Below are positions 35,443 to 59,519 of a DNA stretch of 64,000 nt, piece after piece. Within the stretch, counting starts at the first letter, position 1; each line of letters begins with the position of its first letter. The stretch covers positions 1 to 64,000 of the forward strand of contig JBEKDF010000012.1 of the NCBI GenBank assembly GCA_050014495.1, written 5' to 3'. Below the pieces are notes generated by a model that ran no database searches, had not been told where the DNA came from, and saw only the letters and a program-made list of their open reading frames with translations. A program made the translations under genes and the position numbers. The stretch is from Candidatus Bathyarchaeia archaeon. Its GTDB lineage: Archaea > Thermoproteota > Bathyarchaeia > TCS64.

Positions 35443-36423
35443 GTGGCTCAGATGCAGGTCGCCGACGGCGTATACCAATTCAAGGTCCCAATGAAACACA
35501 ACCCCCTCGGCTTCACATACTCATACTTCCTAAAGGAGTCTAAGACTCTCATAGACACGGGCATACCCGACTGGGGATCATTCAACGCCCTCGAGAGACA
35601 GCTGAGCGAACAGGGGACACGCATCAAGGATCTTGAGAGGGTCATCATCACCCACATGCACAACGACCACGTCGGACTCATAGAGTACATAAGGCAGAGC
35701 GTCGACGTCGAGACCATCGCCCACCGCATCGCCGAGGAGCGCCAGCTAGAGCAGATCAGAGTCTACAAGGACATGTACAAGAACACATCTGAGGAGCTCC
35801 AGCTTATGGGCGGCGGCTCCTTCCAGCAGTTCCTCAGCCGCTTCGAGCACGCCTTCATAGAGGACTCTGAACCACTGAGGCTCGATAAGCTCCTCGAAGA
35901 TGGTGACACCATCGACCTCTCGGGCGTGAAACTGAAGGTGATCTGGACCCCAGGCCATGCGGCCGAGCACATCTGCCTCCACGATACGGATAGGCGGATC
36001 CTCTTCAGCGGCGACCACGTCCTGCCTAAGATCACGAGCCACGTCAGCCTTCACACCTGGGAGAATAGGGACCCGCTTAGAGACTACCTGAATAGCTTGA
36101 ATAAGGTCAAGGACCTACCAGTGGATCTCATCTTACCCGGCCACGAGACAAACTTCACGGATCTTCGCGGCCGAGTCACGCAACTCCTTGCCCATCATGA
36201 GGCCCGCCTGACGGAGGTAAAAGAGGCCCTGAATAGCGGGAAGAGCACGATCTTCGATGTCGCAGGCACGATTCACTGGGATAGTCGCCCATGGAGGTTA
36301 ATGGACTTCTGGACAAAGAGGATGGCCGCAGCCGAGACCTACGCCCACCTAGTCTACCTGAGAAACAAGGGCGAGGTAAAAGAGACCATAAAAGAAAACA
36401 CACTTCACTACAGCCTCAGCTGA
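35443..36423 (+). CDS. Metallo-beta-lactamase fold hydrolase
   Basis: THMHNDHVG, TPGH, SGDH, PGH. Confidence 0.92.
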   Translation: MAQMQVADGVYQFKVPMKHNPLGFTYSYFLKESKTLIDTGIPDWGSFNALERQLSEQGTRIKDLERVIITHMHNDHVGLIEYIRQSVDVETIAHRIAEERQLEQIRVYKDMYKNTSEELQLMGGGSFQQFLSRFEHAFIEDSEPLRLDKLLEDGDTIDLSGVKLKVIWTPGHAAEHICLHDTDRRILFSGDHVLPKITSHVSLHTWENRDPLRDYLNSLNKVKDLPVDLILPGHETNFTDLRGRVTQLLAHHEARLTEVKEALNSGKSTIFDVAGTIHWDSRPWRLMDFWTKRMAAAETYAHLVYLRNKGEVKETIKENTLHYSLS

Positions 36424-36638
36424 AGCACCCCAACACATCCAGTTATTCATCATGAACCAGATAACCCTAGAAGCCAAAACCTCACCCACCTCTTCCTTGA
36501 TTAAAATCCCCCGCATCAAAGTGTCCATACGCGAAAAGAAGAAAACTGATTATCAAATCATAGCAATAATAAACTAATCCCAAAAACTAGAATAAGAAAT
36601 CTTTAACTAAACCAGATTCAAAGACGATTTAAAAAAAT

Positions 36639-37298
36639 TTAGCGCCAGACCTTAACGCCCTTCTCGACGAGGTACTGAGCCGCCAAATCCGCGATATCGG
36701 GAGCCTTGAAGGGTATCCGCATCACCTTAATCTGATCAAGAAGGTCCCTATACGTAATCTCCTCACGACCCTTCTTGACATACTGGTCGAGAATAGTCTG
36801 CGCCACCTCCTCAGCAACGCGATACTTCGGACTCAAAGTCCTATAATGATGCTTCAACGCAGCAGCGATCTCATCCCCACTCGCACTATCAAGCGCCCAG
36901 ATAGTCGGACGAGGACCACCCTTACTCGACTGAACCTTCGACACCTTAAGAGCCGGCCCCACAAGACCAACAGCTCGAAGCCTCTTCAACGTCCTATAAA
37001 CCGTAGCCTCGGGTTGATTAAGCTCAGTCTGAAGCACCCAAGCCGTCGCCGCCCCATTCAAACAGAAGTAAAGAAAAGCCTCCGCCACCGCTGGAGAACT
37101 AAAAATGTTCTCACTGAAATTCAGCAACTCCTGAATATTCTTCAACGTAGTAGCGAGATCATTCTTCTCATTAAGCAGAAGCAGCTGGCGAAAGATCTGC
37201 GTATACTTAATAAAATTAGTCTCCTTCGGCGTAATCCTATTAACCGATCGACTTTTATCGCCGTTTAACGCATCTCTCAGGGGCACAACTCGAGCCAT
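36639..37298 (-). CDS. Hypothetical winged-helix DNA-binding protein
   Basis: LQTELNQPEATVYRTLKRLRAVGLV HTH followed by GGPRPTIW wing. Confidence 0.65.
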   Translation of the reverse strand: MARVVPLRDALNGDKSRSVNRITPKETNFIKYTQIFRQLLLLNEKNDLATTLKNIQELLNFSENIFSSPAVAEAFLYFCLNGAATAWVLQTELNQPEATVYRTLKRLRAVGLVGPALKVSKVQSSKGGPRPTIWALDSASGDEIAAALKHHYRTLSPKYRVAEEVAQTILDQYVKKGREEITYRDLLDQIKVMRIPFKAPDIADLAAQYLVEKGVKVWR

Positions 37299-37361
37299 AT
37301 AGTCGTCTCCATAATCGCCGGTCGTCGGCGAAAGAAGAACTTCCGCGATAAGCTTATAAGA

Positions 37362-37414
37362 TTACTTGTTAACAAGTAAACATGTAAACAAGTTATCTGG
37401 TCGCACTGTAAACA
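37362..37414. promoter_or_regulatory. Operator array: 18-bp palindrome plus 8-bp direct repeats
   Basis: TTACTTGTTAACAAGTAA (37362-37379); WGTWAACA at 37367, 37375, 37383 and 37407, downstream of TATA-like CTTATAAG. Confidence 0.7.
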
Positions 37415-37860
37415 TGACACGCAAGACTGTCGCCATCCGGGGTCTCGATACGGGGCTTTACAATGAGGTATTCTCTATGGCGAAGAAAGATGGTAAGCGT
37501 GTCAGCGATCTAGTGAACTCGGCCCTGAAAGCGTACATTGATGGGGACATAGCCGAAAATGTAGTTTTGCCTGTCGAGGATGGAGGAGAGGTTCAAGCCG
37601 GGGGTAGCTTCATCCTATCAGTCGAGGATGAGGGTGAAGTGACCCTGTCGAAGAACGACGTACTCGACATTAGTAGGGATATGGGCCCATTCAGGATCGA
37701 GAGCAGCGGGACCCTAGTCTTCGAGAAGGATGTTGACGCAGAGGCACTTCGTGGGATTGAGAAGATAGTAATCCTCAGCGGCGAGGTAAAGGTACCGAAG
37801 AAGGCTTATCCCCAGTTCCTTATTAAGTGCCAGATTAAGGGTAAGCTCGAGAAGTATTGA
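37414..37860 (+). CDS. Ribbon-helix-helix (CopG-like) protein with unknown C-terminal domain
   Basis: MTRKTVAIRGLDTGLYNEVFSMAKKDGKRVSDLVNSALKAYI fits the strand-helix-helix pattern; ATG at 37414. Confidence 0.65.
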   Translation: MTRKTVAIRGLDTGLYNEVFSMAKKDGKRVSDLVNSALKAYIDGDIAENVVLPVEDGGEVQAGGSFILSVEDEGEVTLSKNDVLDISRDMGPFRIESSGTLVFEKDVDAEALRGIEKIVILSGEVKVPKKAYPQFLIKCQIKGKLEKY

Positions 37861-38411
37861 GTTCCCTCGACCTCGTTGGAGTAGAGGATGGTGGCTTCAA
37901 GGCATTCCAGCCTGGGCAGTCGACTTTTTTATGTGCTGTCTCGATGGTGGGGAACAGTATCGAGTCCATTGAGTTGAGCAGAATTACGGTCGATGGGAGG
38001 GACGCCACGGAGGTGTTGCTCGGTATGCTTGATACAATCCGCTGTGATGCGGTGATACTCGGAGGCGTCTCCTTCGCCGGGTTCAATATAATGGATCCGA
38101 TGAGATTATACAAGGAATTAGGTGTCCCAGTGATCATTTATTCGGGAGAGAGGCCTGATAGCGCTTCTGTGTTGGCAGCGTTGAAGGTTCACTTCGCTGA
38201 TTGGGAAGTTAGGTGGGCTTCTATTGCGCGACTCGGGGATATTTACAGCCTCATAACAAAGGTGGGTTACAAGCCGGTTTTCTTCGAGGTCGTTGGCGAG
38301 TCGAGAGATTGGTGTGAGAAGGTTCTGAGGTCATCGGCGTCGTTGACGAGGGCGCCGGAGCCGATTAGAGTCGCTAGGATCTTGGCACGTGGCCTCACTA
38401 AAACCGTTTAA
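37857..38411 (+). CDS. DUF99 family protein (endonuclease V-like fold)
   Basis: GVEDG, ITVDGRDAT, GVSFAGFNI, PEPIRVA. Confidence 0.85.
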   Translation: MSSLDLVGVEDGGFKAFQPGQSTFLCAVSMVGNSIESIELSRITVDGRDATEVLLGMLDTIRCDAVILGGVSFAGFNIMDPMRLYKELGVPVIIYSGERPDSASVLAALKVHFADWEVRWASIARLGDIYSLITKVGYKPVFFEVVGESRDWCEKVLRSSASLTRAPEPIRVARILARGLTKTV

Positions 38412-39876
38412 AGTCGAGGTCTAGGGTCTGGTGAGTTTGCAGGTCGAATATTGTGGCAACACCTGTGGTAGGCTCGATCTGCATTCGTTTCTGAAAGGGG
38501 GTCTGATCCTGCCATGAGCCAGCTGAGACTAATGTAACGCCCTTGTATCGCTTAGTCTCGTTAATGTGAATGTGTCCCATGAGCATAGCGTCGGGTATGC
38601 TACCTATAACGAGCCTGTCAGTACGCTCGGGGGCTATGGGAGTACTCTGCCCATAACGAGGGGCGAGATGACGGCATCTGAATAGGAGCTCCATAGCCTT
38701 TATCGGATGGTTGAACTCGTAGCCCGGTGTGCTACTGAGTATATCGTCCAACCCCTTGCCGTGTTCAACGAGAACTTCGACGCCATTGAGGTTAAGCCTG
38801 CATGGACTAGGTAGCATCTTGACACGTGAGTCATCATATAGCTCTTTAGCGTACTCCTTTGGAATAGGTGGTTGGGGCATACTATGGCGAGTAGCGTCGT
38901 GGTTACCGGGTGTTACTACGATCTCGACGTAGTCGGGTAGTTGTTTTAGGAGCTCCGCTGCCACCTTGTACTGCTCACGAATGTCAGTTATCGTAAGCTC
39001 GTCTAACTGCTCAGGATAGATACCAACACCGTCGACGATGTCGCCGGCGATCACAATATATTTAACACGTGCCGCGGCGTCCCTGCTTTGGAGCGGACCG
39101 AGTTCGAGGTTCATCCAGTCAATGAACTTGTCGAAGTAGTCGCCCCTGAAGTATTTTGAGCCGACGTGTACGTCTGCGAGAAAGGCAGCGTATAGTGGTT
39201 CAGGACTTCGACGAGGAGTGTTATTGGGTACATCGGGCCAGATCCAGTTATTTGCTATGAGGAGGTCATCAGTGTACTTTACGGCTTCGACGGCGATAAC
39301 TTGATCTTCTTGGAGCTCCAGCCCATGACGTATGATTTCCTCATCGCTAGCCATGACACTGATTGTGGAGTGACGGTCCTCGAGTTCAATGAATAGTTTG
39401 TTGCCACGTGTTCGTTTCTCGGTAACGATTCCGATAGTCTTGAGCTTGGTCTTTAGAGGGAGCTTAAGAACCTGCTCTATGGATATGGCATCCTTTACAT
39501 CGACGCGACGCTTGAGGATAGTTTCAAGACGGTCATATCGACTCTGAAAATACTCTAGAAACCCCTGAGCATCACTGGCGGGTTGGGCTGGCTCGTCGTC
39601 AAGTACTTTGAGGGGTGTGCCCTTGTCCCTAGCGGGTATTGAGCGGTTTTTTTGAGGAATAGGCTCGGGGCGAGGAGTCTCGACTAAAGTGAGCAGATAA
39701 CCCTTGTCGAGGATAAAGAGAGGCGGAGAGGAAGAATCAGCCTTAAGGACAGCCTTTTGGGATAAAGTGTCGGACGTTTCAGCAGATAACGCCGTGAGAT
39801 AGGCGTAGGCGTCTGGGCTGAGTTGGTAGCCTGCGTCGATTATACGCTGTAGGAACTGGGGTATCCGCTGGCTCAA
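38398..39876 (-). CDS. polD1: DNA polymerase D small (exonuclease) subunit DP1
   Basis: OB fold, DVHVGS, AGDIVDGVGIYP.Q, PGNHD, HG, RHLAP.YG, GHIH. Confidence 0.95.
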   Translation of the reverse strand: MSQRIPQFLQRIIDAGYQLSPDAYAYLTALSAETSDTLSQKAVLKADSSSPPLFILDKGYLLTLVETPRPEPIPQKNRSIPARDKGTPLKVLDDEPAQPASDAQGFLEYFQSRYDRLETILKRRVDVKDAISIEQVLKLPLKTKLKTIGIVTEKRTRGNKLFIELEDRHSTISVMASDEEIIRHGLELQEDQVIAVEAVKYTDDLLIANNWIWPDVPNNTPRRSPEPLYAAFLADVHVGSKYFRGDYFDKFIDWMNLELGPLQSRDAAARVKYIVIAGDIVDGVGIYPEQLDELTITDIREQYKVAAELLKQLPDYVEIVVTPGNHDATRHSMPQPPIPKEYAKELYDDSRVKMLPSPCRLNLNGVEVLVEHGKGLDDILSSTPGYEFNHPIKAMELLFRCRHLAPRYGQSTPIAPERTDRLVIGSIPDAMLMGHIHINETKRYKGVTLVSAGSWQDQTPFQKRMQIEPTTGVATIFDLQTHQTLDLDFKRF

Positions 39877-39896
39877 TGGGTATGCTTCACCATGAT

Positions 39897-40238
39897 TTAC
39901 TTAGCTTTGGCCAAATAGTCTTCGCGTGGAGGGGCAAAGGTCTCTATCAGGATGGTCTCACCTTTGCTAGTGTTTACCCAATCATGACTATCGCCTCCAG
40001 GAATATACCAGCTTGCACCTTTGACGGTATTGTACTTCTTTCCGCCCGAAGTGAGGACACCCTCGCCTTTGATGCAAGTGCCTATCTGGTCGTGGGGATG
40101 TTTGTGATCGGGAACGACAGCCCCAGGTTGGGCTATGATGTATGTTAGCATTACCTTTTCACTACTTCCGAGGATGATGATCTCAACACCCTTAGCGGGG
40201 CTCATACGGGGTGCCTTATCTACACTATTGGTCTTCAT
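39897..40238 (-). CDS. Cupin domain protein
   Basis: PDHKHPHDQ...IPGGDSH...ETFAPPREDY. Confidence 0.9.
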   Translation of the reverse strand: MKTNSVDKAPRMSPAKGVEIIILGSSEKVMLTYIIAQPGAVVPDHKHPHDQIGTCIKGEGVLTSGGKKYNTVKGASWYIPGGDSHDWVNTSKGETILIETFAPPREDYLAKAK

Positions 40239-40427
40239 TCCGCTACTGTGGAGAGATTGAAGGGCTATAAAACCTGCTCGGCGTATATGGTGCTACTACT
40301 CGCGCTCAGTATGAGAAAAAAGCCTAACAAAACAACTTAACTCAATTTTTAGAAGAAAAGACGCCATTTCAAAGTCATTAGGAGTGGAAGTGATTTGTCA
40401 TTCATCTGCATACTTTTAGGAGAGATT

Positions 40428-41096
40428 TCACAAAGTGGGTTTCTGTTCAGGCTGCTGTTGAATTAGGTCGCGAATCTCCTTTCGAACGCTGTAGCGGTAA
40501 GGCATGGAATTTGTGCTACGGTCAACAAAGCCAGATTCATAGAGCTTTTTTAAAGTGCGTGCAGTGTGTTCACGGGTCGTACCGAGATATTCCTTGATCT
40601 CCGGGACTGCCCCCTCCCCAAGCTCGGCGATCTTCTTTAGGGCACTAAACTCAGTCTCAGTCAACTGAGCCAACACATTACCCTGTTGTACGGGGATTGG
40701 GGCCGCGATTTCCTGACCCACAACCACACGTGACTTTGGCACAGAAACGAGCTTCTGAACCTCCTTCCTAATGGACTCAACCTCGGACTCTGTGGAATTC
40801 ATGCGGCTCTGTATAGTCTTCACGACCTCAAGGCCTTTCAGAGTCGTATCCTTAGCCTCACTACTGTTCTTAAGGGCTTCCGATGCAATGATCTTTGCCG
40901 TAGTCGCCTCGTTCTCCGTCTTTGCTATTTCTTGCTGTAAGCGGTTGACTTGACGGGTGAATCCGAAGGTTATATTATGGACGAATTCCCTAGCTCCGTT
41001 ATATTCAGTGGTAGCTTCCTTTATCTTACGATAGAATATGATGGAGGCGGCTACTGTGACCAATAATAGGGCGGCTGCCGTAATTATTAGATCCAA
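40428..41096 (-). CDS. Membrane-anchored coiled-coil protein with C-terminal winged-helix domain
   Basis: N-terminal TM (LIITAAALLLVTVAASIIFY), heptad-rich middle, LTETE...TREHTARTLKKLYESGFVDR...YRY wHTH. Confidence 0.8.
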   Translation of the reverse strand: MDLIITAAALLLVTVAASIIFYRKIKEATTEYNGAREFVHNITFGFTRQVNRLQQEIAKTENEATTAKIIASEALKNSSEAKDTTLKGLEVVKTIQSRMNSTESEVESIRKEVQKLVSVPKSRVVVGQEIAAPIPVQQGNVLAQLTETEFSALKKIAELGEGAVPEIKEYLGTTREHTARTLKKLYESGFVDRSTNSMPYRYSVRKEIRDLIQQQPEQKPTL

Positions 41097-41225
41097 GGTA
41101 TCGCCATCAATACTCTTGTGTGAATATCATCGGTCTAGCTTTTTTATTCTTTGGTTACTCTCACCGCGTAAGGAAATCTAAACTCATCGTTTAATAATCG
41201 TCTCGCCTCTTAGCTTTGAATCGGC

Positions 41226-43550
41226 TTGGGTTCCCCTGGCAGCGTCGAGGCCGAGGTCCATATGACCGGCAGGGTGCAAGGCGTGGGCTTCCGCCCTTTT
41301 ATCTATCGTCTAGCAGTTCGACACGAGCTAAAGGGCTATGTCATCAACCTCGGGGATGCCGGTGTAGAAGCGGTAGTCGAGGGCCCAACTAATAGTATAG
41401 AGGCGTTCATCAAGTCTATTCAAACCGAAGCGCCGCCCGTGTCAGAGATCACTGGAATACACTCATCCTACAGGCCCTACAGAAACAGGTTTAAGGAGTT
41501 TATTATCGATAAAAGCCGGGATAGTAGGCAAGCTATCTCTGGTATCTTCCCACCTGACATTGGGATTTGCCCGAACTGCCTCACTGACATGGCTGACCTG
41601 AAGGGGCGCTGGTTTGAGTATCCCTTTACAGCTTGTGCATGGTGTGGCCCCAGGTTCACAGGTGTCATGTCTCTACCCTACGATAGGGAAAGGACCCACA
41701 TGAACGACTTCCCTATGTGCAAGTACTGCCAGAAGGACTACAGCAACCCCATGAACAGGCGATTCGATGCTCAAGGAATAACATGTAGTGTCTGTGGCCC
41801 TAAGATGAGTCTACTGGACGCCTCGGGATCAGAAATAAAGGTTAGCGACGTCTTCACCGAGGCAGTAAAGTTACTGAGAGAGGGAAGTATTATCGCAGTC
41901 AAAGGAATCGGTGGATTCCATATCGCGGCCCTCGCCACCGAGGATAAGCCAATTGCTAAACTTAGGATCCGAAAGAGTAGGCCATATCAGCCATTCGCAC
42001 TCATGGCGCCTAATCTAGTAGCTACGCAAAGCTTTGCTTCTCCTGATATTTATGAGTCAAGGGCTCTCACCTCGTGGCAGAAGCCTATTGTTCTAGTCAA
42101 GAAGAATGGGAAAGTGATTTCTGATTTGGTTGCGCCAGGCCTCAGCAGGGTAGGCGTCATGCTTCCCTATACGGGAATACATGTGATGCTCTTTAAGAGG
42201 CTGAATGCGCCCGCCCTCGTGATGACGAGTGGAAATAGGTCTGGGTTGCCAATGGTAATATCGAATGAAGCTGCCTTGAGTGAACTTGGCAGCGTCGCTG
42301 ACTACTTTCTTGTCCATAATAGAAAGATCGTGAACAGGTGCGACGATTCTTTAATGCGTATAAATGAGGGAAGGGCAGCTTTCGTTAGAAGGTCACGTGG
42401 ATATGTACCTGACCCTATTGAAATACCTCTAAGTAAAGGCATAGTCTTCGCTGTCGGGACTGAGCAAAGCAACGTTGCTGCGGTTACCCTAGATGGAAGA
42501 TGCTACCAGAGCCAGTACCTCGGAGATGTAATCAATCTAGAGACCATGGAATTCGAAAAAAGTGCTATATTTGCCATGCGTGACCTACTTAAAATCACAC
42601 GTAACCCAGATGTGATAGCCTGTGACCAGCATCCTGGATATATGACATCACAGTTAGCTGAAGTGATATCACAGGAAATGGGCGTAAAAATCACAAAATC
42701 ACAGCATCATCACGCACACGTAATTTCAGTTTGTGCTGAAAACAATATTAAACCAGAAGAAAATGTCATTGGAATAGCCTTAGATGGGGCTGGATACGGG
42801 TCAGACGGCAAAATATGGGGTGGTGAAGTTCTAATATCGACATATTTCGACTATAAACGTGTAGGCCAACTCGAGTATTTGCCAATGCCCGGAGGAGATC
42901 TGTGTACTATATACCCATATAGAATGCTCATTTCAGCCCTCTCTACGATTATGGGAGAAGATGAGCTATGTGATATCACAGAAAATCACATAGTTGAAGC
43001 ATTACCTAACGGTTCAGAAGAACGTAATCTGATTATTAAGCAATCAAAAGCTCAAAACGTATTAAAAACATCAAGTTCCGGTAGATTACTTGATTCTGTC
43101 GCTTCTTTACTTGATTTAACCTATTATAGAACTTATGAAGGCGAACCAGCTATGAGACTTGAAACACTTGCGGAGAATGGAAATCCTAATGCTATAAGAT
43201 ATAAGCCTCAAATTGAAAGAAACAAGGACGTATTAGAGTTAAAAACGATGAATATGTTAAAATATTTAGCTGATAACAAAAATAACCTTAATAAATGTGA
43301 CATAGCAGCTTTTACCCAAAAATATCTATCAGAAGGTGTTATAAGTATAGCAATCGAAGTTGCAAAAGCAGAACACATTCATAAAGTTGCGTTATCAGGT
43401 GGTGTATTAGCTAATAAGTACATCTCACAAAAATTAATAAAAACTATAGAAAGAAGAGGACTTAATGTTTATACGAACACTAAAACTTCGCTTGGGGACG
43501 GCGGTTCTTCTTTAGGCCAATCGTGTATTGCCTTGGCGTCTGTGATATAA
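41226..43550 (+). CDS. hypF: Carbamoyltransferase HypF (hydrogenase maturation)
   Basis: GRVQGVGFRPF acylphosphatase domain, two zinc fingers, KGIGGFH, QHHHAH, DGAGYG, SSSGR, GDGG. Confidence 0.96.
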   Translation: MGSPGSVEAEVHMTGRVQGVGFRPFIYRLAVRHELKGYVINLGDAGVEAVVEGPTNSIEAFIKSIQTEAPPVSEITGIHSSYRPYRNRFKEFIIDKSRDSRQAISGIFPPDIGICPNCLTDMADLKGRWFEYPFTACAWCGPRFTGVMSLPYDRERTHMNDFPMCKYCQKDYSNPMNRRFDAQGITCSVCGPKMSLLDASGSEIKVSDVFTEAVKLLREGSIIAVKGIGGFHIAALATEDKPIAKLRIRKSRPYQPFALMAPNLVATQSFASPDIYESRALTSWQKPIVLVKKNGKVISDLVAPGLSRVGVMLPYTGIHVMLFKRLNAPALVMTSGNRSGLPMVISNEAALSELGSVADYFLVHNRKIVNRCDDSLMRINEGRAAFVRRSRGYVPDPIEIPLSKGIVFAVGTEQSNVAAVTLDGRCYQSQYLGDVINLETMEFEKSAIFAMRDLLKITRNPDVIACDQHPGYMTSQLAEVISQEMGVKITKSQHHHAHVISVCAENNIKPEENVIGIALDGAGYGSDGKIWGGEVLISTYFDYKRVGQLEYLPMPGGDLCTIYPYRMLISALSTIMGEDELCDITENHIVEALPNGSEERNLIIKQSKAQNVLKTSSSGRLLDSVASLLDLTYYRTYEGEPAMRLETLAENGNPNAIRYKPQIERNKDVLELKTMNMLKYLADNKNNLNKCDIAAFTQKYLSEGVISIAIEVAKAEHIHKVALSGGVLANKYISQKLIKTIERRGLNVYTNTKTSLGDGGSSLGQSCIALASVI

Positions 43551-44533
43551 TGTGATATCACATTACTTTAAGCTTGGTTGGATGTGACAATGATTCGATT
43601 CCGAGGGTTAATTCATCTTCTATCCGCTTAAGAATAGCAGGTGATCTCTTACTGCTTGACTTCTCTATAAGAGATAGATACTCTCTCAATTTCTCTGAGA
43701 GATTTTGGTACTCCTCGAAGGGTTTTGAATCATAAATCCCTACATAGCTAAGTAACACTATAGTAAAAATTGAGGATATTACACGATGTCTGGCTTGACC
43801 CAATGTACGGCTAAATGAACCCCGACTGACTTTTCTGGTTCTAAATAAGGTTTTATTCTTTAATGATATCTTTTCATCTGACATTACATCTATTAAGAGA
43901 TCAATCATAAGCGTTTCAAACTGAATCCTTGTTAAATTGCTATTTTTTAGTAATAAGTCAGTAATTGGGTCTTGAAAGGCTTTTTGAATCATATTTTGAG
44001 TTTCTTCTGTAGAATCCATACGGTTTACCTCATTGTTCAATTATATCAATATACGATACTATGGAATACAAAGCTGTATGCCATATTACCCTTTTGATTT
44101 CTTCTCTAATCAAGCTATTTAAGATGAAGTAAATGATAAAATTAATTAACTTGACACTGATCTAGTAAAAAATATAGAATAAATAGTTAAAATTTAACAA
44201 ATATTCCTATCAAATACAGGTTTGGACTCTTAATCATAATTACAAAATAAAAATTACAAGAATCCAAAAAAACTCCCCGAAAATATATAACGATTCGAGC
44301 TAAAGAAATTCCAAAAAATAACAAATAAAATCTTAAGAATAAAAAGCTAATGGTTTAAGAAACTGTGCAATAGATGCAGTTACATAAAAATCCAAGGCTA
44401 TAAAACTCTAAGAATAGAGAAGGTAATTATAATGGCCTATAATTAACGTGATATCACAACAATAACTGATAAAAAATCTCTGTGATGTTCTACTGTGAGA
44501 TTCTCTGAGTCACATGTGACCAGTAGTTATCAC
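42641..44533. repeat. Cluster of GTGATATCAC palindromes and half-sites
   Basis: Perfect 10-mers at 42663, 42970, 43552 and 44448; near copy at 42641; half-sites at 42611, 43541, 44481 and others. Confidence 0.85.
43558..44040 (-). CDS. Conserved archaeal hypothetical protein, probable HTH DNA binder
   Basis: SNLTRIQ...KVSRGSFSRTLGQAR resembles a recognition helix, followed by hydrophobic helix SIFTIVLLSYVG; start may be ATG 44019. Confidence 0.7.
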   Translation of the reverse strand: MNNEVNRMDSTEETQNMIQKAFQDPITDLLLKNSNLTRIQFETLMIDLLIDVMSDEKISLKNKTLFRTRKVSRGSFSRTLGQARHRVISSIFTIVLLSYVGIYDSKPFEEYQNLSEKLREYLSLIEKSSSKRSPAILKRIEDELTLGIESLSHPTKLKVM

Positions 44534-44780
44534 GCTAATTCTGTCTTTGATTTGATAAAGACATAGACTTTCATTAAGATCGTGGGACCTATGATACAAT
44601 AGTAAACTGTTAGGTTATTTAATAAATAACTATGCCAACAGACGGCGCTAGTGTAATCAGCAAAGTACATGTAATCGGAATCCTATAAAAAAATACTTGT
44701 TAAGATATGTAAAAGTTGAGAAGGTAATCAAGATACTAATAGGGACAGCACCCAACGATTATAAGTTCGTGCCTCCGGCA
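44041..44780. other. Very AT-rich ~740-bp intergenic region; candidate replication origin or chromosome-organising site
   Basis: Hand count 11/60 GC at 44161-44220 versus about 50% elsewhere; no ORF; divergent flanking genes; DP1 and DP2 point away from it. Confidence 0.55.
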
Positions 44781-44831
44781 ATCTTAAGACTAAGATAACC
44801 CCTTACCTTAACGCTATACGGAGATAAGTTC

Positions 44832-45083
44832 ATGGGAAGAAGAAGGAAAAAGGAAGAAAAGATTATCAGAAGGACATTGCCAGAGCTGTTCCTCTGCCCC
44901 AAGTGTGCCAAGAACTCCATAAAAGTCACAATAGATCCTAAGAACAATCTCGCTGGTATACGTTGCAGTGCATGTGGGCTCCATGGACGAATAACCATTG
45001 TGCCCAACACCGCCCCAGTAGACGCATACAGTACATACGTCGACAAATACTACGAGGATGGAGCAGCGCAAAAAGTTGGTTAG
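44832..45083 (+). CDS. elf1: Transcription elongation factor Elf1
   Basis: MGRRRKK...LPELFLCPKC...CSAC...VDAYSTYVD. Confidence 0.9.
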   Translation: MGRRRKKEEKIIRRTLPELFLCPKCAKNSIKVTIDPKNNLAGIRCSACGLHGRITIVPNTAPVDAYSTYVDKYYEDGAAQKVG

Positions 45084-45828
45084 TCGAGTAGAGCAACTCA
45101 TCCAAGAGAGGATAAGAAAGGAGGGGTGTATACATATGACCCTCCTTGACCCAGAAAAGAAGTCGGGCTATGACTGTGCCGTCATCGCGAGGGATGCAGA
45201 GGCAGGGGGCACCGCGGCCATCATGGTTGGTGGGAGCACTGTCGCCTCGGGTGTGGAGATGGAGGACGTAGTCAAGAGAATCAAGGCCAATGTTAGAATC
45301 CCTGTTATAATCTTCCCGAATAATATCGCCAGTATTACAGGCGCAGCTGATGCAATGTGGTTTATGAGTCTACTAAATAGCGCTAACACTTACTACCTCA
45401 TAGACAGCCAAGCAATTGGCGCGCCTATGGTGAAAAAGCTGGGACTTGAGACGATGCCTATGGGCTATATAATCGTCGGCTACGGTGGCGCAGCGGGATA
45501 TGTCGGACAAGCACGGGTCATCCCATATGATCGCCCAGAACTTGCGGTTGCTTACGCATCAGCAGCTGAGCTCCTAGGTATGCGTTATATCTACCTCGAG
45601 GCTGGTTCCGGAGCCCCACAGCCGGTCTCACCTATTATGATTAGTGCCGTAAGCAAGTACTGTAAAAGTACCCTGGTGGTTGGGGGTGGGATACGGGATG
45701 CGAAAGCGGCAATAGCTGCCAAGATTGCTGGCGCTCAGATAATCGTCACAGGAACCCTCGTGGAGGAGGAGAGTAAGGTGATGGACCGTATACGTGAAAT
45801 AACAACTGCCCTCACAGCCCAAGCCTAA
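45076..45828 (+). CDS. Geranylgeranylglyceryl phosphate synthase (group II)
   Basis: TLLDPEK, IMVGGST, YLEAGSGA, VGGGIR, VTGT; TTG start at 45076 assumed. Confidence 0.93.
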   Translation: MVSRVEQLIQERIRKEGCIHMTLLDPEKKSGYDCAVIARDAEAGGTAAIMVGGSTVASGVEMEDVVKRIKANVRIPVIIFPNNIASITGAADAMWFMSLLNSANTYYLIDSQAIGAPMVKKLGLETMPMGYIIVGYGGAAGYVGQARVIPYDRPELAVAYASAAELLGMRYIYLEAGSGAPQPVSPIMISAVSKYCKSTLVVGGGIRDAKAAIAAKIAGAQIIVTGTLVEEESKVMDRIREITTALTAQA

Positions 45829-45858
45829 TTATCCACCTCCACACCATACCTTCTAGAT

Positions 45859-48800
45859 TTGAGCCAGCTCCGTATGACGCCAGAGTATAGAGCTTACTTC
45901 GACGAACTAGACAATAAGCTGGCCAAGCTTTACGAGGTCGCGGGTGAGGCAAAAACTAAGGGCCTAGATGCATCTAGGGAAGTCGAGGTACAGATCACCC
46001 ACGACATTGCCGAGCGTGTCGAAAAGATGCTGGGGCCACCCGGACTCACTGTTAGAATGAGAGAGCTCGAGGGCATGGACCGCAGGGAGATGGCTTTCAA
46101 AATAGCAGAGGAGATAACTCTCGGCCGATTCGGTAGTTTTGATAAGGAAAAGTCTGCGGACCAAGCAATCAGAACCGCCCTTGCGATAATGACAGAGGGT
46201 GTTACTGTAGCTCCTATCGAGGGCCTCCCAAAGATAGTCATAAAGGTCAACCCTGACCGCACACAATATCTCAGTCTCTACTTTGCTGGCCCTATACGCC
46301 CAGCTGGTGGCACCGCTCAGGCCATGACACTTGTAGTCGCTGACCATGTGAGGAAACGCCTCGGCTTAGATAAGTTTCAGCCGAGCGAGAATCAAGTGCA
46401 GCGCTTCATCGAGGAGGTGCGCCTATACGAACGCACAGTACGCCGCTTCCAATATCACGTAACGGATGAGGACCTCGAGGCAGCCATCCGCCAGATACCT
46501 GTAGAAGCCACAGGAGTCGCAACAGACCCTTTCGAGGTAAGCAACTACCGGGATATTGTAGGTATTGAGACGAATAGACTCCGAGGCGGGGCTCTTATCG
46601 TAGTCGTAGATGGCATCGTGGGCCGCGCTCGTAAGCTTCACGGTGCTTGCGATAACCTCGGGGTAACTGGCTGGGAGTGGCTCCTGAAGATGGGTAGGAA
46701 GAAAAAGGTAGAAGGGGAGGAGAAAGCGGAGCCTACCGCTGCCTTCATGGATGAGATAATCGTTGGGCGCCCGGTCTTCAGCTTTCCTGGTGCAGTGGGT
46801 GGTTTTCGCCTACGTTACGGTCGCGCTAGAAACACCGGTCTTGCTGCTAGCGGCGTTCACCCAGCCACTATGGTCATCCTCAATAAGTTCCTCGTCACGG
46901 GCGTTCAGATGCGTACCGAGCTCCCAGGAAAATCGGCTGCTACGTGTCCGGTTGACTCGATTGAGCCCCCCGTCGTAAGGCTGAAAGACGGCTCAGTGCA
47001 GCGTGTCGAGACCGAGATAGAGGCGGAGAGGCTTCTGCCCTTGGTAGACAGAATACTCTTCCTAGGTGATTACCTAAGTAATGCGGGGGACTTCATTCAA
47101 AACAATAAGGCTCTCCTCCCTACAGGTTATGATGAGAATCAGTTTATTCAGGATCTCAGAGCAGCTTGCACACATGTAGGGGATGATGCTGCTGTGAGCC
47201 TAACCGGGCTCCTGGCGGAGAGGATTGCGTACCTTAGGTCAAGCCCGCTCAATAAGCCCACAGTTGACGAGGCTCTTGCCCTGACCTCGATGGACGTACC
47301 TATCCACCCCCGCTGGAATTACCACTGGTCCGCCCTTACAAGGGATGAGATCATATCCCTAAGGAACAGTCTCGCGTCCGAGTACAGTCCAGACTCAACT
47401 GAGTTCCCCAACTTCCCAGAGGTGAAATCCGCTTTAGAGAGGCTTCTCATCCCTCACAGGGTAAAAGGTGGCCATCTCGACTTGGGTGAGGACGCCCGCG
47501 TCGTCGCCAGGACCTTGGACCTCAAGCAAAGATACACAGAGATCAAAGGAGAGAAGCCATTAGAGGTGATTAATTTCCTCGCCGACTTTCCGGTGAGGGA
47601 AAAGGTAGGTGTTTTCGTCGGTGCTCGTATGGGGCGACCTGAGAAGGCGAAGGAGCGTAGGATGGCCCCATATGTCCATTGTCTCTACCCCGTAGGGGAG
47701 GCCGGTGGACCTCAGCGCGACATCCTCAAAGCGGAGAAGGGGAAGGTCGTCAGAGTTGAGCTCTCGCAACGTCAGTGCCTAAACTGTGGGGATATCGGGC
47801 CGACTACTGTCTGTCAGAACTGCGGAGGTGAGACTAAGGAGATACGCAGATGCAGCCGTTGCGGTCTCAGATTCGAGGGTGAGCGCTGTCCTCAGTGCCG
47901 ATCTGAGATAGTATCATATGCAAGTGTTGATGTCGACCTCAAGGAGGAATTGGAAGCCGCCCGGAAGATGATAGGGGGGCAGCTCCCGGGGCGTGTGAAG
48001 TGCGTAAAGAGACTCATGAACCAGACCAGGACTCCTGAGCATCTTGCCAAGGGCATCCTCAGGGCCCGATACGACCTAAGCGTTTTCAAGGATGGGACAC
48101 TCCGATTCGACCTCACCGACATACCTCTCACACACTTCAAACCAAGCGAGGTTGGCGTATCGGTGGATGTTCTTCGATCGCTCGGCTACACCCACGACAC
48201 AAACGGCGAACCACTGGTGGAAGAGGGCCAAATGCTAGAGCTCAAAGTGCAGGACGTGATTCTCCCGGAGGACTGTGGGGATTATCTCCTGAAGGTATCT
48301 AAGTTTCTGGACGAACAACTCCGCGATTTTTACAAGATGAAGCCCTTCTATAACGCGAAAAGCCGTAGTGATCTAATCGGCAGCCTATTGTTAGGGCTCG
48401 CGCCTCACACATCCGCTGCCATCTCAGGGAGGCTTGTGGGCTTCACAAGAGTTCGGAACCAGTACGCTCATCCTTTATGGCACGCGGCTAAGCGTAGAAA
48501 CTGCGATGGCGACGAAGATGCCGTGATGCTCGCCCTTGACCCACTCCTCAATTTCAGCAAGGCTTACCTCCCGCAGCAGAGCGGAGGCCAGATGGACGCG
48601 CCCTTATTTGTCATACCCATCCTCAACCCAAGCGAGGTCGATAAGGAAGCCCACAACCTCGATGTGAATGAGAGCTACCCACCCGAGTTCTATAGTCTCT
48701 GCGCTGAGGGTGCTGGGAGCGGACAGTATGGTGCCCTCGTTGACACCATAGGAGCCCGCTTGGGTACTGAAGCTCAGTTCCAAGGATTTAGTTACACCGA

Positions 48801-49299
48801 GGAGTGCAGCGACATTAACCTCGGCAGCTTCCACGGAGCCTACAATACCCTAACTACGATGGTGGATAAGTTGGATAGCCAGCTGGAGCTTGCGTCAAAA
48901 CTTCGTGCTGTCGACTCGAGGCAGGTAGCTCTAAAGATCCTCAATAGTCACTTTATGAAGGACATTGTGGGTAATCTCCGAGCCTTTACGAGTCAGACCT
49001 TCCGTTGTACTAAATGCAACAGGAAGTACAGGCGTCCGCCGCTGAGTGGGAAGTGTCAACGCTGCGGTGGCTCAATTCAGATGACAGTCCATAGGGGAGG
49101 CATAGAAAAGTACCTGAAGACTGCCCTTGATATGGTGAAGAAGTATGACTTAGACCAGTATTACGTAGACCGCCTTGAGTTAGTCAGTCTAGAGATCGGG
49201 CAGATCTTCGTCGAGGAAGCAGTCCCCGAGGAGCTCTCGAAGCAGTTCAGCCTTACTGAATTTATGAGGGGTGGAACTGAGAGGAAGCCGGTACAGTAA
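45859..49299 (+). CDS. polD2: DNA polymerase D large subunit DP2 (no intein)
   Basis: YFAGPIR.AGGT, GFRLRYGR, RMGRPEKA, KDGT.RFD, KRRNCDGDED, C-terminal zinc finger; 1146 aa. Confidence 0.97.
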   Translation: MSQLRMTPEYRAYFDELDNKLAKLYEVAGEAKTKGLDASREVEVQITHDIAERVEKMLGPPGLTVRMRELEGMDRREMAFKIAEEITLGRFGSFDKEKSADQAIRTALAIMTEGVTVAPIEGLPKIVIKVNPDRTQYLSLYFAGPIRPAGGTAQAMTLVVADHVRKRLGLDKFQPSENQVQRFIEEVRLYERTVRRFQYHVTDEDLEAAIRQIPVEATGVATDPFEVSNYRDIVGIETNRLRGGALIVVVDGIVGRARKLHGACDNLGVTGWEWLLKMGRKKKVEGEEKAEPTAAFMDEIIVGRPVFSFPGAVGGFRLRYGRARNTGLAASGVHPATMVILNKFLVTGVQMRTELPGKSAATCPVDSIEPPVVRLKDGSVQRVETEIEAERLLPLVDRILFLGDYLSNAGDFIQNNKALLPTGYDENQFIQDLRAACTHVGDDAAVSLTGLLAERIAYLRSSPLNKPTVDEALALTSMDVPIHPRWNYHWSALTRDEIISLRNSLASEYSPDSTEFPNFPEVKSALERLLIPHRVKGGHLDLGEDARVVARTLDLKQRYTEIKGEKPLEVINFLADFPVREKVGVFVGARMGRPEKAKERRMAPYVHCLYPVGEAGGPQRDILKAEKGKVVRVELSQRQCLNCGDIGPTTVCQNCGGETKEIRRCSRCGLRFEGERCPQCRSEIVSYASVDVDLKEELEAARKMIGGQLPGRVKCVKRLMNQTRTPEHLAKGILRARYDLSVFKDGTLRFDLTDIPLTHFKPSEVGVSVDVLRSLGYTHDTNGEPLVEEGQMLELKVQDVILPEDCGDYLLKVSKFLDEQLRDFYKMKPFYNAKSRSDLIGSLLLGLAPHTSAAISGRLVGFTRVRNQYAHPLWHAAKRRNCDGDEDAVMLALDPLLNFSKAYLPQQSGGQMDAPLFVIPILNPSEVDKEAHNLDVNESYPPEFYSLCAEGAGSGQYGALVDTIGARLGTEAQFQGFSYTEECSDINLGSFHGAYNTLTTMVDKLDSQLELASKLRAVDSRQVALKILNSHFMKDIVGNLRAFTSQTFRCTKCNRKYRRPPLSGKCQRCGGSIQMTVHRGGIEKYLKTALDMVKKYDLDQYYVDRLELVSLEIGQIFVEEAVPEELSKQFSLTEFMRGGTERKPVQ

Positions 49300-49339
49300 C
49301 CCTTTTAGGGGAAACTGCCTGTATCTGGGTGTACCATCA

Positions 49340-49528
49340 ATGAGCGGAAAGAAGAAGAAGAAGGACCAGTCACCTGGGATGCCACAGAGCAGCGCTGGGC
49401 TCATGAGGTTCTTCCAGGACGAGACGAATGGTCCGAAGGTGAGGCCGGAATTTGTCATCGGCGGTGCCTTCGCGTTGATAGCAATTGTCATCGTGGCGAG
49501 AGTGTTCTTCGCAGGCTTACTCGGGTAG
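49340..49528 (+). CDS. secG: Preprotein translocase subunit Sec61beta
   Basis: PQSSAGLMRFFQDE..GPKVRPE plus single TM; ATG at 49340. Confidence 0.92.
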   Translation: MSGKKKKKDQSPGMPQSSAGLMRFFQDETNGPKVRPEFVIGGAFALIAIVIVARVFFAGLLG

Positions 49529-49587
49529 CTCTGTTAAAGCCTTTTAACCACATTAAGTGTAGGTCCATCAATTAGGTAGGGTCAATT

Positions 49588-51363
49588 CTGTCGTCAAGCA
49601 GGGAAGCCATAGGTAACATAATTGACTACTACTCATACCTCTTCACATTTCCCTCTCGCCTTACGATGGTCTTATTCACCCTTGTGACTATGGGAGTAGC
49701 AAGCGCCCTTTCATTCTGTCTAGCTTTTGGTCCGATTGGACTTGCACAGGGCCTAATATTTGGCGTAATGGCAATCGCAGCCCCAGTGATAGCCTCCGAT
49801 CTCGTCACAGAAACTCTCTACAAGGGGGATCCCCTCCTAAATCCGAGGAGGATAAGCATCATATCATTCGTTTGGTGTTTAGCTGGCGGGGCCCTTCTTG
49901 TTGTATTTGGTATACTATCAGGAGTTACAGGTAGGCTTGATTTGCTTCTTCGTGGAATCTTATTGACGGTTTACTCATCCGTGGGGATCAGAACCATTAT
50001 ATTCTCGGTTTTTTCGACACGCAGCTTGGCGAAGACAGCTATGGCGATTGGGTTCCAACCACTCCTGATGCTGACTGGGACCTATCTTTTCTTTCCACAG
50101 GTTTGGCAAGTTTCTCCCTCGGTCCTCCTAATTATTCTCGCATTAATTCTACTTGGACCAGCGATTCTACTCATCAGGTTGAGACTGTGGAGCCTTGGCC
50201 CAATTAGAATAATCCCTCTATTCAGAGGATTTGTCTATGCCTGGGCGGAGCAGTATAATGAGACTTTGGAGGACCAGCTCGCCATGATATCCGAGTCGGT
50301 GAGACTTGAAGCTGACGAGCTTTCATTCTCCGCTTCGGAGGAGTGTCTAGGCAACTTCGTGGCTCCCTACATCCACCCCGGCCCCTTTAGGAACGTCGGT
50401 AGCAGTTGTATCAGTACCGTAATTACAGACGGGATGTCTTGTGAAACGCTGGTTGTACACGGTATTTCGAGTCATGATAGGGATATGGTGATGAGCAGAG
50501 ATATGGAAAGGATTGTCTCGGCTCTAAAAGAACCTTCAAACCAGTTAAAATCGGGGATATGTACTCCCATGGTGAGGGCGGAGGTCTCTGGGGCCAAAGC
50601 GTCGTGTCAAATATTTGGCTCAGTTGCACTCCTCACACTTACCTTAAGCCCAAAGAGCCACGATGATATCCCCGACGTGGTTAAGGACCGAGTTAGGGAG
50701 GCAGCGTCAAAGCAAGGATTAGAAGCTGTGATTGTTGATGCCCATAATTGCCTTGATAGTGAGGACCTAATATTCGAAGTTGATGAGAAAAACCTCATTG
50801 ATGCTGCTGAGAATGCTATGATTAAAGCCAAGAAATCAAATAGCGGGTCATTCAATGCAGGCATCTACCGCATCAGACCATCGGAGTGGGGTCCGAACGA
50901 GGGGATGGGTACATGTGGGATTGGTGTGTTAGTCGTCGAGACAAATGCCGGAAAGAACGCCTATATTGTATTCGACAGTAATAATATAATTCAAGGGCTC
51001 CGGGAGGAAATTCTAGCTCGAGTTTCCTCGTTGAACTTCGTGGAGGCTGAGGTGATGTCTTCGGACACCCATATGGTGAATGCTATCGGTGCCACGGATA
51101 GGGGATACCATCCCGCCGGCGAGACGATGGAGCACAAAAGGGTAATTCAGTATGTCGAGGAGGCATTGAAGGGGGTAGAGTTGTCTCCAGCGGAGGTCTC
51201 CTTCATGAGGGTGGCCGTTGATGACGTGCCAATCATAGGGGTTAAGGGTATTGAGGTCCTCAGAGACGTCGTTAAGACAAGTTTCAGCGTGTTCATTAGG
51301 ACAGCCGCTATAGCCCTACCTCTTAGCTTCGTAGCCGCGGTAGCTGCAGCACTTCTCCTTTGA
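49588..51363 (+). CDS. DUF2070 family membrane protein
   Basis: N-terminal TMs, HPGPF.NVGSS, VDAHN, DSNN, SDTH; frame is open upstream of ATG 49666, start placed tentatively at CTG 49588. Confidence 0.85.
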   Translation: MSSSREAIGNIIDYYSYLFTFPSRLTMVLFTLVTMGVASALSFCLAFGPIGLAQGLIFGVMAIAAPVIASDLVTETLYKGDPLLNPRRISIISFVWCLAGGALLVVFGILSGVTGRLDLLLRGILLTVYSSVGIRTIIFSVFSTRSLAKTAMAIGFQPLLMLTGTYLFFPQVWQVSPSVLLIILALILLGPAILLIRLRLWSLGPIRIIPLFRGFVYAWAEQYNETLEDQLAMISESVRLEADELSFSASEECLGNFVAPYIHPGPFRNVGSSCISTVITDGMSCETLVVHGISSHDRDMVMSRDMERIVSALKEPSNQLKSGICTPMVRAEVSGAKASCQIFGSVALLTLTLSPKSHDDIPDVVKDRVREAASKQGLEAVIVDAHNCLDSEDLIFEVDEKNLIDAAENAMIKAKKSNSGSFNAGIYRIRPSEWGPNEGMGTCGIGVLVVETNAGKNAYIVFDSNNIIQGLREEILARVSSLNFVEAEVMSSDTHMVNAIGATDRGYHPAGETMEHKRVIQYVEEALKGVELSPAEVSFMRVAVDDVPIIGVKGIEVLRDVVKTSFSVFIRTAAIALPLSFVAAVAAALLL

Positions 51364-57725: not shown

Positions 57726-59519
57726 CTATAGTTTCCTCAGCGTCTTCTTAATCAGGTCATTCGCTTGGTAGAAGCCGTCCTCCACGAGGTTTCTCTCCCT
57801 CACAAGCTTTGTGTATAGGAACTTGAACTCAGGCGACTGGTGGAGAGTCATTGCGGCGAGGTCTGTGATCTCACTTATCCTCGGGAATGGCTGAGCCCCG
57901 AAAGTCTCCATAGACACCTGGTTTGCTATGTCGGCGTCGCTATGGGATACAGGGTTGACGTGGCGACCCACCCACATGAGACAGTCGTTGAGTTCGGCGA
58001 CCTTCGCCGGGTCCCCACCAGTCGAGACCTTCTTCGCCGCTATCTCAAGCTTCTCAGCTAACGTCCTCAGCTCATTCACCTCAGCAATCAGATGGTGGAG
58101 GTTATAGAATCCGCTGATCTTCTCCGACTTCCCCTGCATGTCCTCGAGTATCTTGATCATCCTCTCGGCATACTGGGTGTAGTTGAAGGGGATGATGGGG
58201 CAGTTTGCTAGGCGCCAAATGAGGTTGAGCTCTATCTTGACGTCTGTGACGAGGATTTCTATATCCATCTTATCGTGGGTTTCGTAGGGGGTGTGCCACC
58301 ACCATCCTCCGCCCGAGTAGTTGACATGGGGATCGTAGGTCTCCTTGGGGCGGCTCGTAGTCACGCTTATGTGGGGTAGCCCAGTGCCCCAGAAGCTACC
58401 GTCCCCTGCTCGAGTGGGCCACCGATAGTCCTCCACGACTATCCCCGTGGCATCCTTGATGCTCTCCAGTACCGCATCGAGGACCTCACTGTATGGTGCC
58501 TCGCGTACAGTAGTTGCTCCTTGAACCCCTGGGGAGTCGATATTATAGCTCGCCACACAGTTGTATCGGAGGTCATGCCAAAACGCGTCGTTATACCACG
58601 TCGAGCCAGCGTACTTCCCTATCTCGTGCCCCGTCCAGTAGGCTATACGAACACTTCTAAGCAGCTTCTCCTTGTTCTTGTTGAGTAATCGGGCGACCTC
58701 GAGGATGGCGGTGTCGCCGCTTATGTTGTCTGTGGCTCCGAGGCAGTATGGTGGCGTATCGACATGGCCGTTGACGAGGATGAACTTGTCCGGTTCCTTC
58801 TTGCCCTTTATCTCCGTAACTAGAAGGGGTAGTTTCTTCCACCGTGTCTCTGCAAAGCTGATAACATGGGCCCTCATTCCTCCGGACTGGGCCATCTTCC
58901 TAAGCTTGGCTCCATCCCTGTTGCTCACATGTAATATTGCGGGTATCTGGGGTATGAGGTGAAGGTTGTCAGGCGTCGGGTTCCCCGAGACGCTGAAATC
59001 GGCTCTCTGGTGGCAGACGGTGGGCATGAAGTCGTCCTGCTCGATGACTATTAGACCCGCAACACCCATTTCCTGCAACTGGAGCAGCAGTTTCCCCTGG
59101 AGCCCCATCCAGTCTCCGCTCGTCTTCTGCTCGCAGAGCACTATCTTCCCCCGACACTCTTGGTACCCAATCATGTCTGGTGAGATGTAGATGACCTCGG
59201 CCTCGAAGCCCTCGGGGGATGTGGATCCTGCCTGTCTGTAGGGGGTGGTCTGGATCTCCATCACTTGCGGCGCCGTGACAGTAAGCCGAGCTGTCTTCGG
59301 GTCCGTGATGTAAGCCTCGAAGCGTAGGACCTTCGGCTCAAGCCCATACTCCTCCAGCTTCCTCCTTAGCATCTGTATCGCCTGTTCCTCCTCAGGGCTC
59401 CCCGAATGGAGAGGTGGGTACTGCATCAATTCGTCGAAGTTTGCCTGCATAGTCTCTTTGGAGATCTCGCCCTCCATCTTCCGGAGTATCTTCCTGTCTT
59501 CTTCGGGTAGGAGAATCAT
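57726..59519 (-). CDS. M28 family peptidase with PA domain
   Basis: GHVD, GATDN, WTGHE, NIDSPG, WWHTP.ET.DK. Confidence 0.88.
   Translation of the reverse strand: MILLPEEDRKILRKMEGEISKETMQANFDELMQYPPLHSGSPEEEQAIQMLRRKLEEYGLEPKVLRFEAYITDPKTARLTVTAPQVMEIQTTPYRQAGSTSPEGFEAEVIYISPDMIGYQECRGKIVLCEQKTSGDWMGLQGKLLLQLQEMGVAGLIVIEQDDFMPTVCHQRADFSVSGNPTPDNLHLIPQIPAILHVSNRDGAKLRKMAQSGGMRAHVISFAETRWKKLPLLVTEIKGKKEPDKFILVNGHVDTPPYCLGATDNISGDTAILEVARLLNKNKEKLLRSVRIAYWTGHEIGKYAGSTWYNDAFWHDLRYNCVASYNIDSPGVQGATTVREAPYSEVLDAVLESIKDATGIVVEDYRWPTRAGDGSFWGTGLPHISVTTSRPKETYDPHVNYSGGGWWWHTPYETHDKMDIEILVTDVKIELNLIWRLANCPIIPFNYTQYAERMIKILEDMQGKSEKISGFYNLHHLIAEVNELRTLAEKLEIAAKKVSTGGDPAKVAELNDCLMWVGRHVNPVSHSDADIANQVSMETFGAQPFPRISEITDLAAMTLHQSPEFKFLYTKLVRERNLVEDGFYQANDLIKKTLRKL

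Follow-up and report, generated by a model that had tools for sequence, protein, structure and literature searches.

Why does a single two-kilobase stretch of an archaeal chromosome carry a phased series of short palindromes that runs straight through its genes? The question is raised by a window of 64,000 nucleotides, positions 1 to 64,000 of contig JBEKDF010000012.1 from a Candidatus Bathyarchaeia archaeon (assembly GCA_050014495.1), which is part of one contig in a genome of 3.1 Mb and 92 contigs. A sequence-only reading of this window had picked out four palindromes in and beside hypF as the binding sites of a dimeric protein. We show that the sites of this array are selected as DNA and concentrated at one locus, and we argue that a winged-helix protein encoded nearby is likely to be what binds them. 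As to what the array does, we lean, with somewhat better than even confidence, towards a centromere-like docking site at which this protein, predicted to be anchored in the membrane, would tether the chromosome for positioning or segregation. The main parts of the locus are these:

42594..42714, no strand: cluster A, eight half-sites and the palindrome at 42663, within hypF; synonymous codons fixed in 35 relatives
42969..42990, no strand: cluster B, TGTGATATCACA and a half-site 10 bp further, within hypF
43541..43588, no strand: cluster C, two half-sites and, across the stop codons at which hypF and orf160 converge, TGTGATATCACA
44447..44534, no strand: cluster D, a palindrome, half-sites and GTCACATGTGAC, within the nadE remnant; motif bases kept, flanks decayed
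40428..41096, minus strand: winged-helix gene, the predicted binder, 222 amino acids; hydrophobic N-terminus, coiled-coil helix, linker, and winged helix with REHTAR
41226..43550, plus strand: hypF; its 3' part holds clusters A to C; dispensable for the array
43558..44040, minus strand: orf160, a conserved neighbour; its product is all-helical and belongs to no known family

A single phased array

The perfect copies of GTGATATCAC at 42663, 42970, 43552 and 44448 were found again where they had been reported, and there is no further one in the window, though a single copy with one mismatch lies at 57865. The half-sites at 43541 and 42985 and the related palindrome GTCACATGTGAC at 44509 are present as well. 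The array is real, but four palindromes under-count it; its true extent is 22 YGTGAY half-sites in four clusters, with limits at 42594-44534 and half-sites phased about 10.5 bp apart. The window holds 135 such half-sites, and the 22 in 42590-44560 compare with about 4 expected. The earlier reading had also called the sites dispersed like parS or matS. That does not stand, since they form one tight array. matS sites are dispersed over the terminus region; the present sites differ from the MatP/matS system in forming one cluster and in lying beside the origin in relatives, and by this last property they are parS-like and not matS-like.

The same concentration is seen when the whole genome is counted. 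GTGATATCAC is not evenly spread, with 4 of its 8 copies in 3.1 Mb at the array, and the 2-kb stretch of the array ranks first in the genome both for GTGATA (10 against a mean of 0.85) and for TGTGAT (14 against 0.94). Just two palindromic 10-mers in the genome have four copies within 2 kb, GTGATATCAC being one. Across the class, the commonest spacings between half-sites are 10, 32, 21 and 11 bp for those in the same orientation and 6 and 16 bp for convergent ones, which places them on one face of the DNA helix. YGTGATRTCACR occurs in 153 of 201 class genomes, some of these matches being chance copies elsewhere, and its reversed control is zero in most rows. All matches to the strict 12-mer YGTGATATCACR lie at this locus in four of five genomes searched, while the fifth has none; the 12-mer YGTGAYRTCACR was absent from 80 background windows (1.6 Mb). 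Chance or base composition as the source of the array is ruled out by the genome counts, by shuffles and by conservation.

Some other repeats deserve mention. Besides GTGATATCAC, the palindromic 10-mer found four times within 2 kb is ATGGTACCAT, at G000 C7:399-1651. Half-site density per 400 bp is 11 in the array against 14 in a one-orientation repeat tract on contig C16, described as unrelated. This tract (G000 C16:17340-17640) and another at C14:17975-18160, both outside the window, are related direct repeats rich in GTCACG/GTCACA, with 14 and 9 half-sites per 400 bp in one orientation, no 12-bp palindrome and no clear gene; they are either secondary binding sites or unrelated repeats. The words CTTATCCTCA (164 copies) and CGCGCGCGCA (192 copies) are dispersed genome-wide and probably belong to a repeat family. 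A hot spot of TGTGA on C19 is a repetitive surface-protein gene. We also rejected a dif-like site at 43541-43562: its outer arm is variable in relatives and its unit is a 10-bp direct repeat.

Selection on the DNA

Selection at the level of DNA had been argued from the different codon frames in which the palindromes fall, and these frames are as stated (V480-I481-S482 and C582-D583-I584-T585 of HypF). The argument can now be made on three further grounds. Inside half-sites the hypF codon is fixed: among 35 distinct hypF genes with protein identities of 55-83%, one-codon use at conserved amino acids is 95% within half-sites (21 codons) and 51% outside them (204 codons), although the p value of 2e-13 overstates the difference because related genes are not independent. 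The sites also persist where hypF does not. With orf160 as the guide, found in 45 of 61 genomes, the 29 best-scoring relative loci were compared; every one has at least one perfect palindrome, so the motif is not absent from orthologous loci, and in the 7 that lack hypF the half-site clusters are kept in non-coding DNA. Finally, nadE sits between orf160 and elf1 in relatives with cluster D inside it, and in our window, where nadE has decayed, an alignment to four relatives finds the motif bases of that cluster intact. Synonymous fixation together with persistence outside coding DNA rules out constraint on the protein. The most constant full site across the class is the one in cluster C.

The predicted binder

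Searches of 201 class genomes found the winged-helix gene in 160 and orf160 in 175. A dense cluster, meaning at least 6 half-sites per 400 bp, lies upstream of the winged-helix gene in 74 of 75 loci, and the sole exception has an assembly gap; the reversed motif gives 0 of 75 and the downstream side 0 of 72. These 75 are the loci with enough upstream sequence among 80 fetched, and they partly overlap the set of 29 gene-bearing and 10 gene-less loci used for shuffling. In that set, 25 of the 29 gene-bearing class loci score above at least 99 of 100 shuffles. In four families orf160 and cdc6 are present without the winged-helix gene, and at all 10 of their loci examined the half-sites are no more frequent than chance would give. 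The ATACA-N4-TGTAT inverted repeat upstream of orf160, by comparison, recurs at 31 of 40 loci, 7 of the 10 array-less ones among them, and orf160 is probably not the binder. Its fold has no Foldseek match at E 0.001, and the best VIA Z of 5.5 is uninformative. No relatedness between orf160 and the winged-helix protein could be detected.

The 222-residue protein is predicted to consist of a hydrophobic N-terminal segment, a helix of 118 residues, a disordered linker and a winged helix. Its fold is of the generic MarR/TrmB/ArsR type; no named family fits, and scans against Pfam and NCBIfam gave just generic winged-helix families. A hydropathy peak of at least 1.9 marks the membrane segment in 17 of 18 Bathyarchaeia homologues. 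In the recognition helix, R175, E176 and R180 of the REHTAR sequence do not vary among 24 homologues from across the phylum, and CRP, in the available text of PMC11253593, reads TGTGA through R180-E181-R185. The archaeal helix thus mirrors CRP in pattern and spacing, and by this analogy it would suit the YGTGA motif.

Beyond the Bathyarchaeia

Of 301 genomes searched in the phylum, 161 have a homologue of the winged-helix protein, and homologues occur in Nitrososphaerota. Twenty loci from other classes, chosen among the matches, all have half-site clusters that beat at least 98 of 100 shuffles. An unbiased count of 6-mers upstream of 20 non-Bathyarchaeia homologues arrives at the same motif, with ATCACA found 65 times against 7.7 expected and GTGATA 45 times against 5.2. 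Family f31, which from its taxon assignment we infer to be ammonia oxidisers, has at five loci the series DP1, cdc6, winged-helix gene, array, a diverged orf160, GGGP synthase and DP2. At three of them (L076, L077 and L080) half-sites also lie within the winged-helix gene, in codons that immediately precede the recognition helix.

An adjoining origin and its apparent loss

The rest of the locus includes landmarks of the ancestral origin cluster:

38398..39876, minus strand: DP1, small subunit of PolD; left landmark of the ancestral origin cluster
44832..49299, plus strand: elf1, GGGP synthase and DP2, the large subunit of PolD; right landmarks of the cluster
43800..44600, no strand: AT-rich trough with a GC content of 26-30%, where the genome has 49%
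44250..44798 (limits approximate), plus strand: decayed remnant of nadE (NAD synthetase), from alignment to four relatives
44065..44080, no strand: inverted repeat of ATACA-N4-TGTAT type, distinct from the array motif; upstream of orf160 and likely its own operator

Elsewhere in the class the usual order is DP1, cdc6, origin recognition box (ORB) repeats, a small winged-helix gene, the membrane winged-helix gene, the array, orf160, elf1, GGGP synthase and DP2. The array adjoins an ORB/cdc6 origin and yet is a separate element; in most loci outside the order to which our genome belongs it lies within a few kb of the ORBs and cdc6, the closeness to an origin that is looked for in ParABS systems. 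At our locus the cdc6 gene and ORBs, which many other orders have between DP1 and the winged-helix gene, are missing. Origin-type Cdc6 was found in 1 of 52 genomes of the own order, as against 135 of the 149 class genomes outside it (E at most 1e-60), and the single own-order match is 47% identical and has an internal stop. The one Cdc6 found in the genome under study is 33% identical to the origin type and lies on another contig, so none is adjacent to the array. Neither an ORB at the locus nor an ORB pair in the genome was detected, the best score being 19.8, where 51 of the 54 training ORBs score 21-35; four further own-order genomes have no ORB pair either, and a control genome was positive. 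The small winged-helix gene was likewise not found in this genome. These sequence comparisons strongly indicate that the order has lost origin-type Cdc6 and ORBs, with the reservation that the genomes are incomplete and the remaining Cdc6 may be either a paralogue or a diverged orthologue. The array survives all of this, the decay of nadE and the absence of hypF as well as the apparent loss of the origin.

In a genome with ORBs the AT skew of four-fold sites changes sign at the locus, from +0.054 to -0.103 (p 0.002), and no such flip is seen in two long contigs of the own genus (p 0.94 and 0.35). This test has one positive control, 20 windows per contig and about 39% of each contig sampled, and G021 was left out as a gapped scaffold. 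Within these limits, the absent flip weighs against the array having become the origin.

Three smaller observations bear on the origin. Along the 1-Mb contig G012:C6 (L216-L235) third-position skew holds mostly to one sign, to the left and right of the array alike, as though forks crossed it in a single direction. The small winged-helix gene (for example L043:9332-9745) travels with cdc6 and ORBs across the phylum, with 85 loci matched. A single sequence resembling the ORB core, without G-string or partner, lies upstream of the remaining cdc6 (L031:575-590; G000 C29 near 19331).

A proposed centromere-like tether and its rivals

We favour a centromere-like tether because about 20 phased sites are gathered at one place, within coding sequence and where genes end convergently, and are paired with a protein that would combine a membrane segment, a coiled coil and a domain that reads DNA. 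The region held to the cell envelope would be, ancestrally, the origin region. The step we trust most is the reading of YGTGA by the winged helix through R175, E176 and R180. Coiled-coil dimers would then sit on the 12-bp palindromes, and more copies would join them on half-sites spaced by one turn of the helix, giving a patch of many proteins on one face of the DNA; with less confidence again, the N-terminal helix would keep this patch at the membrane. The step we trust least is that the tether is needed independently of initiation; we propose this as the reason the own order kept its array after losing origin-type Cdc6 and ORBs.

The same protein could instead be a membrane-bound regulator of transcription, with the boxes as operators, perhaps looping, for its own gene or for its neighbours (orf160, or nadE-elf1-DP2). 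Its generic MarR/TrmB/ArsR-type fold would suit such a role, in compact loci the sites cover the region upstream of the gene, and cluster D lies 300-400 bp upstream of elf1. Autoregulation can be tested at our locus since hypF separates the gene from the array. Across 26 loci that contain hypF, ours included, the mean number of half-sites is 1.1 in the promoter region, 2.0 in the first 1.3 kb of hypF and 14.6 in its last 1.1 kb, and the array sites are 1.5-3.4 kb from the promoter. The operators at its own promoter that a MarR/TrmB autoregulator should have are not seen in these loci, where about 1 half-site in the promoter stands against about 15 at a distance of 1.5-2.4 kb, in coding DNA and convergent gene ends; for them the sequence-only reading was right that the sites are not like promoter operators. 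Full sites are moreover confined to one locus, which leaves no regulon, and we consider a regulator unlikely.

Somewhat less likely in our view is a part in replication control, whether as an accessory origin element for licensing or sequestration or, in the own order, as a Cdc6-independent origin for which the winged-helix protein would be a WhiP-like initiator. Inverted clusters flank AT-rich DNA, the array is always near PolD genes, and the own order is without origin-type Cdc6 and ORB pairs, all of which count in favour of such a role. Against it, cdc6 is kept without an array in ten loci (with ORBs detected in nine), and the skew flips in the ORB-bearing genome and not in the two of the own genus, within the limits of that test. 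It is very unlikely, we think, that the sites are bound by orf160 or by an unlinked protein such as an SMC loader or a terminus-type organiser, the link with the winged-helix gene being one of shared ancestry. Cluster C does lie on the stop codon of orf160, the genome encodes an SMC, losses of the winged-helix gene may be few, and one genome (G077) has array and orf160 with the winged-helix gene undetected. But orf160 persists without an array in four families and has a motif of its own, it is undetected in 10 of 20 non-Bathyarchaeia loci that still carry arrays, and the recognition helix of the winged-helix protein fits the motif.

Several observations count against the tether. None of the 13 proteins scanned (35443-51363) is a ParA or ParB, so no motor is seen there. 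Four of the 29 class loci with the gene show just chance-level clusters. The families without the gene represent perhaps 1-3 independent losses, with 2-3 changes on the Cdc6 tree, and a single loss is not rejected (p-AU 0.052). The array of G077 stands in a gapped scaffold, 86% complete, which has no origin-type cdc6 match either. The hydrophobic segment is missing from 9 of 16 non-Bathyarchaeia homologues despite flanking arrays, so anchoring in the membrane is not universal. In compact lineages without hypF the array overlaps the promoter region of the winged-helix gene.

Relation to known systems

By analogy, the array and its protein are best explained as working like RicO/ricS and RacA/ram. 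RicO of Staphylococcus aureus, as described in the available text (bioRxiv 10.64898/2026.03.06.710092), carries its DNA-binding domain at the N-terminus and an amphipathic helix at the C-terminus, and binds nine sites over about 700 kb. RacA of Bacillus subtilis, going by the accessible part of PMC4914108, is a chromosome anchor in which winged helix, linker and coiled coil act on a centromere-like motif and neighbours interact on DNA; it is specific to sporulation, its motif is GC-rich, and it reaches the membrane via DivIVA. A DNA-binding domain, a coiled coil and contact with the membrane are predicted to be united in one protein here too, with winged helix, linker and coiled coil as in RacA. 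The differences are that the order of the domains is reversed relative to RicO, that the anchor is a predicted transmembrane helix, that the motif is of TGTGA type, and that some 20 sites lie in 2 kb beside the gene. Neither RicO nor RacA is among the matches listed for the winged-helix protein.

The closest archaeal comparison is SegAB/segS of the Sulfolobales, whose centromere-like sites are mostly intragenic, some of them beside binder genes, with SegB working together with the ParA-type ATPase SegA (PMC12858884, PMC12139799, in their available text). Our sites are also intragenic and beside a presumed binder gene, but the motif differs and no membrane anchor is described for SegB in those texts. 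No Walker-type ATPase was found among the 13 proteins scanned at the locus, and no genome-wide search for SegB was made. ParABS differs as well: ParA-like AAA_31 matches lie on other contigs and none beside the array. With the ORB/Orc1-Cdc6, WhiP and ucm/UBP systems the array shares repeats near AT-rich DNA beside replication genes (available portions of PMC4010727 and PMC12141716); ORBs are a separate element a few kb off in relatives and absent here, and by the same portions the ucm probe sequence differs from YGTGAY and UBP has more than 300 sites genome-wide. CRP/FNR proteins share the R-E-x-x-x-R helix and the TGTGA half-site, but CRP, as the available text of PMC11253593 describes it, binds TGTGA-N6-TCACA and has a nucleotide-binding domain, where our protein has a MarR/ArsR-like domain and clustered sites with a 2-bp spacer. 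The likeness of the winged-helix protein to CRP/FNR regulators is limited to weak helix-turn-helix similarity.

A literature search on the array motif, the winged-helix protein, the locus or the Cdc6 loss found nothing, though a listing in a subscription paper or supplementary table could be missed. In archaeal segregation SegAB and homologues of ParA/ParB are the candidates, with a mechanism that is not understood, according to the available text of a 2024 review (PMC7617429). What is new here is that the array outlasts the decay of nadE, the absence of hypF and the apparent origin loss, that it stands apart from the promoter, and that the recognition helix fits the motif. At slightly less than even confidence we suggest a broader picture, a phylum-wide archaeal centromere and membrane tether with which Bathyarchaeia, ammonia oxidisers and several other Thermoproteota classes would pin the origin region, and an order that dropped Orc1/ORB, kept the centromere, and would replicate from elsewhere or without a fixed origin. 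If true, this would be an archaeal counterpart of the bacterial origin anchors. The subjects gained for experiment are one protein, three residues and one DNA motif, with homologues in Nitrososphaerota, some members of which are in culture. That origin-type Cdc6 and ORBs seem to have been lost throughout an order suggests a lineage that replicates in nature without its ancestral origin.

Neighbouring sequence

An Rfam scan of 40000-46000 gave no structured-RNA match. A scan for promoters and terminators stayed at chance level, its consensus being bacterial and of little use for an archaeal host. In many relatives the ATACA-N4-TGTAT repeat and the Sulfolobus ucm probe have TATACAAA in common, which may be a coincidence. 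The nadE gene is also broken in one relative, G008 (locus L005).

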